Positions 24,228 through 26,213 of a stretch of 64,000 nt of DNA are shown here, piece by piece (within the stretch, counting starts at the first letter, position 1; the number at the start of each line of letters is the position of its first letter). A program made the translations under genes and the position numbers. The notes beneath the pieces are model-generated. The model did no database searches. It worked only from the letters and a program-made list of their open reading frames with translations, and had not been told where the DNA came from. Source of the DNA: an uncultured Thermoplasmatales archaeon (GTDB lineage: Archaea > Thermoplasmatota > E2 > DHVEG-1); contig CAZTMK010000007.1 in assembly GCA_964615235.1 (NCBI GenBank), positions 22,630 to 86,629 on the forward strand, in the 5' to 3' direction.

Positions 24228-26213
24228 ATGAATAAAAAAGATGCTAAAAAAAAGATAGAGCAACTGCGTGAGGAGATAAACAAACATAATTACAAATATT
24301 ATGTTGAAAACAACCCTGAGATTTCTGATTATGAGTTTGATCAACTGCTGAAGAAACTTGAAGCAGTTGAAAATGAATATCCTGATCTGATAACCATTGA
24401 TTCACCTACTCAACGAGTTGGTGGAGCTCCTCTTGATAGTTTTACAACAGTTGAACATAAAACACCTATGCTTTCGCTTGGAAATACCTATAATTATGAT
24501 GAGCTTCGTGATTTTGATGAACGTGTTAAAAAACATGTTTTAGATGTTGAATATGTTGTTGAACCTAAAATCGATGGAGCTGGTGTTGCACTTCTTTATG
24601 AGAATGGGGTACTTGTTCGTGGTGCTACACGTGGTGATGGTATAAGTGGTGATGATATCACTCAGAATCTGAAAACCATACATAGTATACCTCTTAGATT
24701 ACATGGTAACAAGTTGAAAAACGTTGAAGTCCGTGGCGAAGTCTATATGGCAGTTTCTGGTTTTAAAAAATATAACAAAGAAATGGAAAAAAAAGGGGAG
24801 AATGTTTTTGCAAATCCACGTAATGCTACCGCGGGTTCCCTTCGTCAACTTGATCCACGTATAGTAGCTGAGAGACCACTTGATATATGGATTTATGTTC
24901 TTTCATATTCAGATAAAGATTTTAAAACACATTATGAGACATTAGAAGCCCTTAGAAAAGCCGGGTTTAGAGTTAATCCTTATATTAAAAAAGTAGGTGA
25001 CATAGAAGAAGCTATCAAATACTGTGAAGAACTTGAGAAAAAACGTGAAACACTTGATTATGAGATAGATGGAGCTGTAATCAAAGTTAATTCTATCGCT
25101 CAGCAGAAACTACTTGGTTTTACTACTAAAAACCCTAGATGGGCTATATCATATAAATTTACAGCTAAACAGTCCACTACGCGTCTTAATGATATAGCTA
25201 TTCAAGTAGGTAGAACAGGTACTCTTACACCTGTTGCTATTCTTGAACCTGTAGAAGTAGGAGGCGTGACTGTTTCACGTGCAACGCTTCATAATTTTGA
25301 TGAGTTAAAGAGAAAAGATATCCGCATAGGTGACTGGGTTCTAGTGGAACGCAGCGGTGATGTGATTCCTCAGGTTGTGAAAAGCATCATTGAGAAAAGA
25401 ACAGGAGAGGAAAAAAAGAAAATTATCCCTAAAAAATGTCCTATATGCAATACCGAGGTAGTTCGAGCGGAGGGAGAAGTAGCTGTTAGATGTCCTAATA
25501 GGCTTTGTCCCGCTCGTCTTAAATGGCGTGTGAAATACTATGCCTCACGTGATGCGATGGATATTGATCACCTAGGTGGTTCAACAATTGATAAACTCAT
25601 AGAAGAAAATCTCATTGATAATGTCGCTGATCTCTATAGTCTGAAAAAAGAAGAAATATTGAAACTTGAGGGTTTTAAAGAAAAATCTGCACAGAACCTA
25701 CTTAATTCCATTGAGAAAAGTAAAAAACAGGATCTATCTAGACTGATTTATGCACTTGGAATACGCCATGTAGGTAAATATGCTGCACAGCTCTTGGCAT
25801 CAAAATACAGTTCCATTGATGAACTAGCAAAGGCTTCAGCTGAAGAGCTAAACGAGATATATGGACTTGGGGAGAAATCAGCAGGAGCAATAGCCACGTT
25901 TTTTGCAACAGAAGAAAACATGCAGCTGATAGAACGATTAAAAGACATAGGCGTTAAAACAAAGGAAAAAAGAAAAGATAACCTACCTCTTCAGGGTAAA
26001 AAATTTGTTTTCACAGGAGGACTAACTAGTATGTCACGGCCTGAAGCAGGGGATCTTGTTAAACAAAACGGTGGCATAGTTGCTTCATCAGTTGGTAAGG
26101 ATATTGATTATGTTGTTGTTGGTGAAAAACCTGGTTCTAAATATGAAAAAGCAAAGAAATTGAATTTGGAATGTATTGACGAAAATAAGTTTAAACAGAT
26201 TTTGGGTAAATAG
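24228..26213 (+). CDS. ligA: NAD+-dependent DNA ligase (bacterial type).
   Basis: The adenylation motif [34 protein letters not shown] (KxDG). An OB domain, the Zn finger CPICNTEV...CPNRLCPAR, HhH repeats and a C-terminal BRCT domain ([10 protein letters not shown]). 661 aa. Confidence 0.9.

Follow-up and report, generated by a model that had tools for sequence, protein, structure and literature searches.

The window analysed here is a 64,000-nucleotide stretch of DNA from an uncultured Thermoplasmatales archaeon (GCA_964615235.1, contig CAZTMK010000007.1, 22,630-86,629, forward strand), and our data indicate that its ligA gene, which encodes an NAD+-dependent DNA ligase, very probably results from a replacement in place, in which type-A DNA of another, unsampled Thermoprofundales lineage replaced the resident type-B ligA by recombination. 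Type A and type B are names defined in this analysis: type A is the LigA lineage of the replaced tract in the window, and type B is the lineage of LigAs like that of locus L063, the Thermoplasmatota metagenome-assembled genome (MAG) Zod_Metabat.7. The tract carries a codon anomaly, its flanks are colinear with those of sister genomes that hold type B, both breakpoints can be mapped, the tree of the gene conflicts with the trees of its flanks, and both LigA lineages exist and are distributed across Thermoplasmatota. The source of the window is itself a Thermoplasmatota archaeon of the Thermoprofundales (MBG-D) radiation. All the sequences, that of the window included, are metagenome assemblies.

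Results

The ligA gene (24228-26213, + strand, 661 amino acids) is the third gene of a conserved ribK-polX-ligA-DUF6485 array. The first, ribK (21813-22502, + strand), encodes a CTP-dependent riboflavin kinase (PF01982) that serves as a host marker and is 96% identical in amino acids to its counterpart in L086 and 94% identical to that in L063. It is followed by polX (22509-24224, + strand), whose product has a Pol-beta-like core and a PHP domain by Pfam, is 95% identical to PolX of L086 and is native except for about its last 8 codons. The ligA ATG lies 3 nucleotides past the polX stop codon, and 9 nucleotides after ligA starts a native open reading frame (ORF) for a small Cys-rich protein of 69 amino acids (26223-26432, + strand), assigned to DUF6485 through the Pfam family of its orthologues and 93% identical in amino acids to both L063 and L086. 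This ORF is kept downstream of ligA in carriers of type A and of type B, which suggests that it belongs to the array.

The breakpoints were mapped with three-way informative sites, at which the window was compared with four type-B relatives and five type-A loci. At position 24191 the window for the last time sides with the B carriers while all five A loci differ, and at 24200 it sides for the first time with every A locus while all four B carriers differ; the 5' crossover interval is therefore 24192-24199 (+ strand), inside the end of polX. At the other side, a G at 26162 is common to the window and the type-A locus L087 against all B carriers, and from 26168 onward the window matches L086 and L063 against all A loci, which leaves 26163-26167 (+ strand; conservatively 26142-26167) as the 3' crossover interval, in ligA codons 645-647 within the BRCT domain. 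A 12-nucleotide exact match between the two types, TATGAAAAAGCA, adjoins this crossover at 26141-26152. Each crossover is resolved to within 10 nucleotides. The tract between them (24200-26162, + strand, about 1.97 kb), which identity and codon usage both mark as type A and which we regard as imported, comprises the last polX codons, the 3-nucleotide spacer and ligA codons 1-645. The remaining 3' end of ligA (26168-26213, + strand) is near-identical to L063 and L086, unlike all A loci, and appears to derive from the recipient; the stretch 26164-26290 is about 98% identical to L063 in nucleotides. The encoded LigA is thus a chimera with residues 1-645 of type A and residues 647-661, its last 15, of type B.

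Nucleotide identities change accordingly along the locus. In the 900 polX nucleotides that precede the junction, identity is 95% to L086, 90% to L063, 83% to L083 and 85% to L085, against 66-68% to the A loci. Within the tract (24200-26154) identity to the type-B relatives of the same genus is 58-59%, and the A loci L087, L003 and L006 reach 75-77%. In the ligA tail and DUF6485 the type-B relatives are again the closer, at 85-93% compared to 67-70% for L087, L003 and L006. A divergent segment lying wholly inside ligA (24680-26094), as delimited by blastn, was considered and rejected because blastn had extended its matches through moderately conserved sequence; the codon-level and three-way analyses place the true junctions at about 24195 and 26165. 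The same mosaic is reproduced in two Logan single-run assemblies, SRR14802572 (99.99% identity) and SRR14802574 (99.94%, 5 single-nucleotide polymorphisms).

The phylogeny of the tract conflicts with that of its surroundings in neighbour-joining trees, each built from one or two proteins. A clade of the window, L086, L063, L083 and L085 was recovered in 100 of 100 bootstraps on both the polX and the ribK tree, and on the polX tree the window, L063 and L086 grouped together in 98 of 100, with the window sister to L086. The flanks therefore group with type-B carriers while LigA groups with clade A, the clade formed by the type-A sequences. The tract does not resemble the insertion of a mobile element, as it takes the place of an equally long gene in that slot: no significant repeats and no integrase flank it, no tRNAs are present in the 64-kb window, and no close relatives were found on viral contigs or plasmids. 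Colinear and similar flanks, a divergent homologue in the slot, sharp breakpoints and a compositional anomaly confined to the tract are what is seen at this locus, as expected for replacement in situ.

The codon anomaly was measured across the 56 ORFs of at least 120 amino acids in the window (ligA and 55 others) by a G-test over all synonymous codons, comparing each gene with the rest of the window against a multinomial null matched to its length and amino-acid content. The sole strong outlier is ligA, with a z of 10.1, the next gene reaching 2.6. Its arginine residues are encoded by 22 CGN codons, 15 of them CGT, and 12 AGR codons, compared to a CGN:AGR ratio of 184:443 in the remaining 55 ORFs (Fisher p=3.9e-5) and 7:17 in polX, whose codon usage is native. 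An earlier note on this DNA, made from the sequence alone, had estimated roughly 20 CGN against 9 AGR codons in ligA, had described polX and most other genes as dominated by AGA and AGG, and had proposed a codon island confined to one gene; our exact counts differ slightly from its estimate, and all three statements hold, the codon anomaly being more marked than the note had put it. The bias extends well beyond arginine: CGT makes up a fraction of 0.44 in ligA and 0.12 in the rest of the window, CTT 0.48 and 0.28, TTA 0.08 and 0.30, CCT 0.82 and 0.34, and CAG 0.65 and 0.30. Overall, CGT, CTT, CCT, GCT, GGT, GTT, CAG and ATA are raised and AGA/AGG, TTA/TTG, CCA, GCA and CAA are lowered, with a GC content (0.365) and a GC content at third codon positions (0.224) that are the same as in the neighbouring genes.

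To avoid circularity, a codon score was trained solely on the type-A ligA genes of other genomes, and by this score ligA again ranks at the top of the window (z=4.8). Along the sequence, the sliding score steps up at about 24230-24300 and comes down again at about 26100-26200. The codons of the tract follow most closely what type-A ligA genes, and the backgrounds of type-A carriers (L052, L025, L029, L016), would predict, whereas the background of the host itself ranks 44th of 149; for the control gene polX, the best predictors are the backgrounds of its own genus. The type-B ligA of L063 has native codon usage (z=-0.5). The second-ranked outlier in the window (50977-51669, - strand, z=2.6) is an ORF of 230 amino acids with no Pfam match, which also has the highest type-A score among the genes other than ligA. 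Elsewhere, the type-A ligA at 9938-11980 of L025 reaches a z of 18.7 within its own locus, with CGT at 0.71 against 0.35 and CAG at 0.86 against 0.45, and may be another recent import.

Five contigs of the same genus (L063, L083/L084, L085 and L086) run colinear with the window over distances of up to about 22 kb, with flanks 79-95% identical in nucleotides and 74-99% in amino acids, and all five carry a type-B LigA 50-52% identical to that of the window. The amino-acid identity of the flanks is graded, from 91-99% for L086 through 88-96% for L063 to 74-95% for L083 and L085. In L063, whose LigA is 52% identical to that of the window, the genes for a PQQ protein, NOG1, RibK, PolX, DUF6485, two hypothetical proteins, a ferredoxin and AOR follow in the same order at 88-96% amino-acid identity. 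Among the type-B LigAs of the genus the identities are 92, 86 and 84%, values that track the divergence of the flanks and indicate that B is vertically inherited within the genus. Type B is also a second large lineage in Thermoplasmatota, with at least 120 clusters at 65-93% identity. A metagenome scan with the back-translated type-B alignment, whose patterns are generic, returned among the matches listed mostly bacterial LigAs at 45-55% identity and two type-B loci. One type-B protein, P0124, bears the label Promethearchaeota and is probably misbinned.

Type A is an old archaeal lineage as well. At least 120 distinct 90%-clusters are 76-84% identical to the LigA of the window, and all named ones are Thermoplasmatota MAGs, with no haloarchaeal sequences among these named close relatives. 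In the set of GTDB species representatives, LigAs with 68-83% identity to it occur in about 60 species of Thermoplasmatota, and past type A the identities drop to at most 52%, in Nitrospinota, Clostridia and Gammaproteobacteria. When clustered at 50%, clade A collapses to a single representative, the next being at most 54% identical; of the ten such representatives nearest to clade A, the single named one is from Clostridia, and the closest bacterial LigAs overall are 43-54% identical to that of the window. Clade A is monophyletic in 100 of 100 bootstraps of the LigA tree, with the window inside it as sister to L087, and its members include SG8-52-3, SM1-50, M9B1D, M11B2D and 3300003432D, which are Thermoprofundales (MBG-D) MAGs (Zhou et al. 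2018, PMC6461988). The order ribK-polX-ligA is kept in nearly all type-A loci and DUF6485 completes the slot. The nearest type-A gene, that of L087, is 84% identical in amino acids and 77% in nucleotides, and the adjoining polX is just 61% identical to that of the window. The LigA of the window thus belongs to type A by identity and by clade, and lacks the vertical inheritance together with its flanks that is usual in this clade.

These results change part of what the earlier note had proposed. Its claim of a relatively recent horizontal acquisition is supported by the codon island, the conflict between gene and flank trees and the mapped crossovers. Its bacterial donor has to be abandoned in view of the archaeal clade A, with full bootstrap support, and of bacterial LigAs that reach no more than 54% identity; nor was a bacterial-type ligase new to this lineage, as the slot holds type B in all five contigs of the genus. 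The note had also held that a LigA phylogeny within an old, vertically inherited archaeal clade would speak against its reading: the old archaeal clade is indeed what we find, and vertical inheritance in this genome is not.

One locus with a LigA 83% identical to that of the window is labelled 'Heimdallarchaeota bin76 chromosome' (L050, CP070665.1), and we rejected it as a donor or as a case of transfer across phyla because the locus is a patchwork. Its region 9303-12030 holds a polX fragment with only the PHP domain and a truncated type-A ligA without BRCT, followed by pieces of genes for an FMN dehydrogenase and an aconitase. This locus is likely misassembly or pseudogene debris, and its phylum label is doubtful.

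The chimeric ligA encodes all LigA modules in canonical order, each exceeding its curated Pfam cutoff. Domain Ia (Nlig-Ia, PF22745) spans residues 8-56 with 30.2 bits against a cutoff of 27 and aligns with E. coli residues 5-55; it is followed by the adenylation (NTase) domain (PF01653, residues 71-314, E 4.9e-97), the OB fold (PF03120, residues 317-394), the C4 zinc finger (PF03119, residues 403-429), the HhH domain (PF12826, residues 505-568) and the BRCT domain (PF00533, residues 586-656). From one end to the other the protein aligns with the structure of E. coli LigA, 2owo (E 3e-175), with the catalytic lysine K114 in EPKIDG (nucleotides 24567-24569) opposite the lysine of the E. coli KLDG motif and all four zinc cysteines aligned, so that the full set of LigA hallmarks read from the sequence beforehand is borne out. 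On the strength of domain Ia and of this overall homology the enzyme is predicted to be NAD+-dependent, and it would seal nicks alongside PolX during the repair of gaps and possibly also in replication. Over its full length it shares the six-module architecture of the solved bacterial enzymes from E. coli (2owo) and T. filiformis (1dgs), to which it is about 45-50% identical; unlike these, it is encoded by an archaeon, falls in an archaeal clade with 100% bootstrap support and lies in an operon-like array after PolX.

Across the phylum, the two types are about 50% identical and occupy the same slot in different, distant lineages. Type B was monophyletic in 100 of 100 bootstraps and a joint clade of A and B was recovered in none of 100, in a neighbour-joining tree with limited bacterial sampling; the mean distance between A and B (0.81) equals the distance of either clade to bacterial LigAs. 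A and B are therefore two old lineages, and, given the same tree and sampling, they possibly stem from two separate ancient acquisitions, a suggestion we make tentatively. The distant B carriers L088, L089, L090, L172 and L173 have the order NOG1-ribK-polX-ligA(B), usually then followed by DUF6485. On the ribK and polX tree, whose carriers number 47 for A and 9 for B, at least 5 changes between A and B are needed by the Fitch criterion (5 in 67% of the bootstraps, 6 in 31% and 4 in 2%), and with a minimum of 4-6 switches the slot has evidently been overwritten repeatedly. Two further loci have a type-B ligA directly after the gene for the RFC large subunit instead of polX (L091, 10001-12016; L174, 4335-6398), which hints at a replication-linked role. 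In Microbulbifer (Gammaproteobacteria; L080, L081 and L082, about 10001-14000) a polX homologue, 42-44% identical to that of the window, lies directly downstream of ligA, in the order opposite to that of the archaeal array; a linkage of ligA and polX thus exists in bacteria too.

The wider gene context of the window is archaeal, with genes for SRP54, NOG1, archaeosine TGT, a class I CCA-adding enzyme, PAC2 and the CTP-dependent riboflavin kinase. The 64-kb window contains no gene for an ATP-dependent ligase and no ribosomal-protein genes, so that it offers no reference set of highly expressed genes. Upstream of ribK, the region 19062-21304 holds an ORF of 218 amino acids (19508-20164) and a NosD/beta-helix ORF (20161-21369); colinearity with L063, L083 and L085 breaks down in it, and L086 has a NosD-like ORF there. 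This region is a second variable spot within an otherwise conserved neighbourhood. Two KaiC-like ATPase genes lie near each other at 46870-47655 and 48080-48850, and a cluster of AOR, 4Fe-4S ferredoxin, ThiF and ThiS-like genes occupies 27552-31130.

Discussion

Our data are best explained by a replacement of type B by type A in situ. The ancestor of the genus would have carried type B in the ribK-polX-ligA-DUF6485 slot, and as B is vertical within the genus with the window as sole exception, the swap most plausibly ran from B to A and took place after the lineage of the window had split from that of L086, its closest sampled relative. Type-A DNA of another Thermoprofundales lineage, one yet to be sampled, would have entered by homologous or homology-facilitated recombination, with crossovers in the last 8 or so polX codons and in ligA codons 645-647, beside short patches conserved between the types. 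About 1.97 kb would thereby have been overwritten, leaving a chimeric yet complete LigA. The codon island would then exist because the imported tract keeps the preferences of its donor (CGT, CTT, CCT, GCT, GGT, GTT, CAG) and has yet to adjust to its host.

Several points weigh against this account. No close donor is sampled, the best type-A match being 84% identical in amino acids and 77% in nucleotides (L087), so the source lineage is one that we infer rather than one that we can name. The type-A ligA genes of L003, L004, L006, L025, L050 and L078 are biased in the same way relative to their own neighbours, so that the gene itself rather than the donor may account for part of the codon bias. 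This intrinsic trend has a median z of about 0.5, with L025 as a strong outlier, so that a minor gene-intrinsic part, or additional swaps of recent date, cannot be told apart from the donor signal. The host markers ribK and polX adjoin the swapped gene and their trees are neighbour-joining trees of one or two proteins. Finally, all the sequences come from metagenome assemblies, and the junctions are seen at the level of assembly.

This last point raises the question of whether the mosaic is an assembly chimera, in which a type-A ligA was joined to type-B flanks at conserved sequence. Type-A and type-B organisms do co-occur in sediments, and at least one public record among the compared loci (L050) is a patchwork. 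We nevertheless regard such an artefact as highly unlikely, as the same joins occur in three assemblies (the NCBI contig and the two from Logan), one of them with 5 single-nucleotide polymorphisms, the crossover intervals span at most 8 and at most 5 nucleotides, and the longest exact matches between A and B nearby, among the sequences sampled, are about 12 nucleotides, well under assembler k-mer sizes; the reading frame of ligA and all its domains are also intact. If the mosaic is real, it could still be asked whether type A is the vertical state in the window, with an intrinsic codon bias, and L063, L083, L085 and L086 acquired type B instead. Type A is the majority state among neighbouring lineages on the polX tree, and in several genomes the codons of type-A ligA lean mildly the same way. 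On polX and ribK, however, bootstrap support of 98-100% nests the window among B carriers, with L086 as its sister, so that a vertical type A would need at least two independent imports of B with identical breakpoints. Within the genus the B identities follow the divergence of the flanks, no type-A gene exceeds 84% amino-acid identity to that of the window while its flanks are 91-99% identical to those of L086, a z of 10 is far above the intrinsic median of about 0.5, and the last 15 residues of LigA are of B type, unlike every type-A tail. We consider this history very unlikely.

The two other explanations concern the codon island itself. Codons ending in T, such as CGT, GGT and GCT, are typically among those preferred by many low-GC prokaryotes, and together with the mild trend common to ligA orthologues this could point to translational selection on a highly expressed or specially regulated ligA, for which no transfer is needed. 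The type-B ligA of the sister genome L063, which is unbiased (z=-0.5) in the same slot and operon, speaks against such selection, as do the steps in the codon score, which match the recombination junctions and not the start and stop of the gene; the window also has no ribosomal-protein or other reference set to back it, and we find this explanation scarcely credible. A recent direct import from a bacterium, into an archaeon otherwise using an ATP-dependent ligase, would account for a codon island that is real, the LigA family is ultimately bacterial in origin, and a recent transfer of LigA from bacterium to archaeon is known, from Prevotella to 'Ca. M. alvus' (PMC4153887). Yet we give it next to no chance, since the closest bacterial LigAs are just 43-54% identical, at least 120 archaeal clusters and about 60 species at 68-84% identity share the gene with conserved synteny, clade A is monophyletic in 100 of 100 bootstraps, and all close relatives already hold the NAD+-dependent type B in the slot.

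Replacement of type B by type A is thus a well-resolved new case of a known process, xenologous replacement in situ. The concept of 'gene displacement in situ' is reportedly due to Omelchenko et al. in 2003, and the locus resembles such displacement in that a gene of an array is overwritten by a divergent homologue between native flanks, with conflicting trees and no hallmarks of mobile elements. Homologous replacement of loci has also been described between haloarchaeal species (PMC3542582). The case here differs in the unusual divergence of the incoming allele (about 50% identical in amino acids and 58% in nucleotides), in crossovers placed at very short patches of conservation, one of them inside the gene and giving a chimeric enzyme, and in a switch between A and B that recurs about 4-6 times across an uncultured order.

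Bacterial-type LigA or LigN has been documented in Halobacteriales, in Marine Group II (MG-II), a Thermoplasmatota lineage listed without an ATP-dependent ligase, and in 'Ca. Methanomethylophilus alvus', whose LigA derives from Prevotella (PMC1684257, PMC3914693, PMC4153887). Like these, the window has a bacterial-type NAD+ ligase in an archaeon through horizontal transfer. Compared by description, it is unlike them in that the event runs from archaeon to archaeon and replaces an existing LigA, and in that two old LigA lineages alternate at one locus. The main genome papers on Thermoprofundales do not mention DNA ligase, and the recurrent alternation of A and B has apparently not been described in these genomes. 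It is conceivable, though we think it unlikely, that A and B are kept as alternative 'alleles' of one slot throughout the order and are swapped because selection favours switching, possible sources of such selection being viral or toxin factors directed against one of the two types, or compatibility with different partner proteins. An essential enzyme of replication and repair would then be a variable, exchangeable locus.

For the reading of such genomes, the codon island confined to one gene proved a reliable pointer to transfer, yet a misleading one as to the donor. As judged from its sequence, the locus appears to be a natural case, resolved to the base pair, in which a homologue only about 50% identical overwrote a gene and left a chimeric ligase that looks functional, and it bears on the reach of homologous replacement in archaea. 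The alternation of A and B is relevant to the use of ligA and polX as markers and to the reconstruction of the replication and repair machinery of uncultured archaea.

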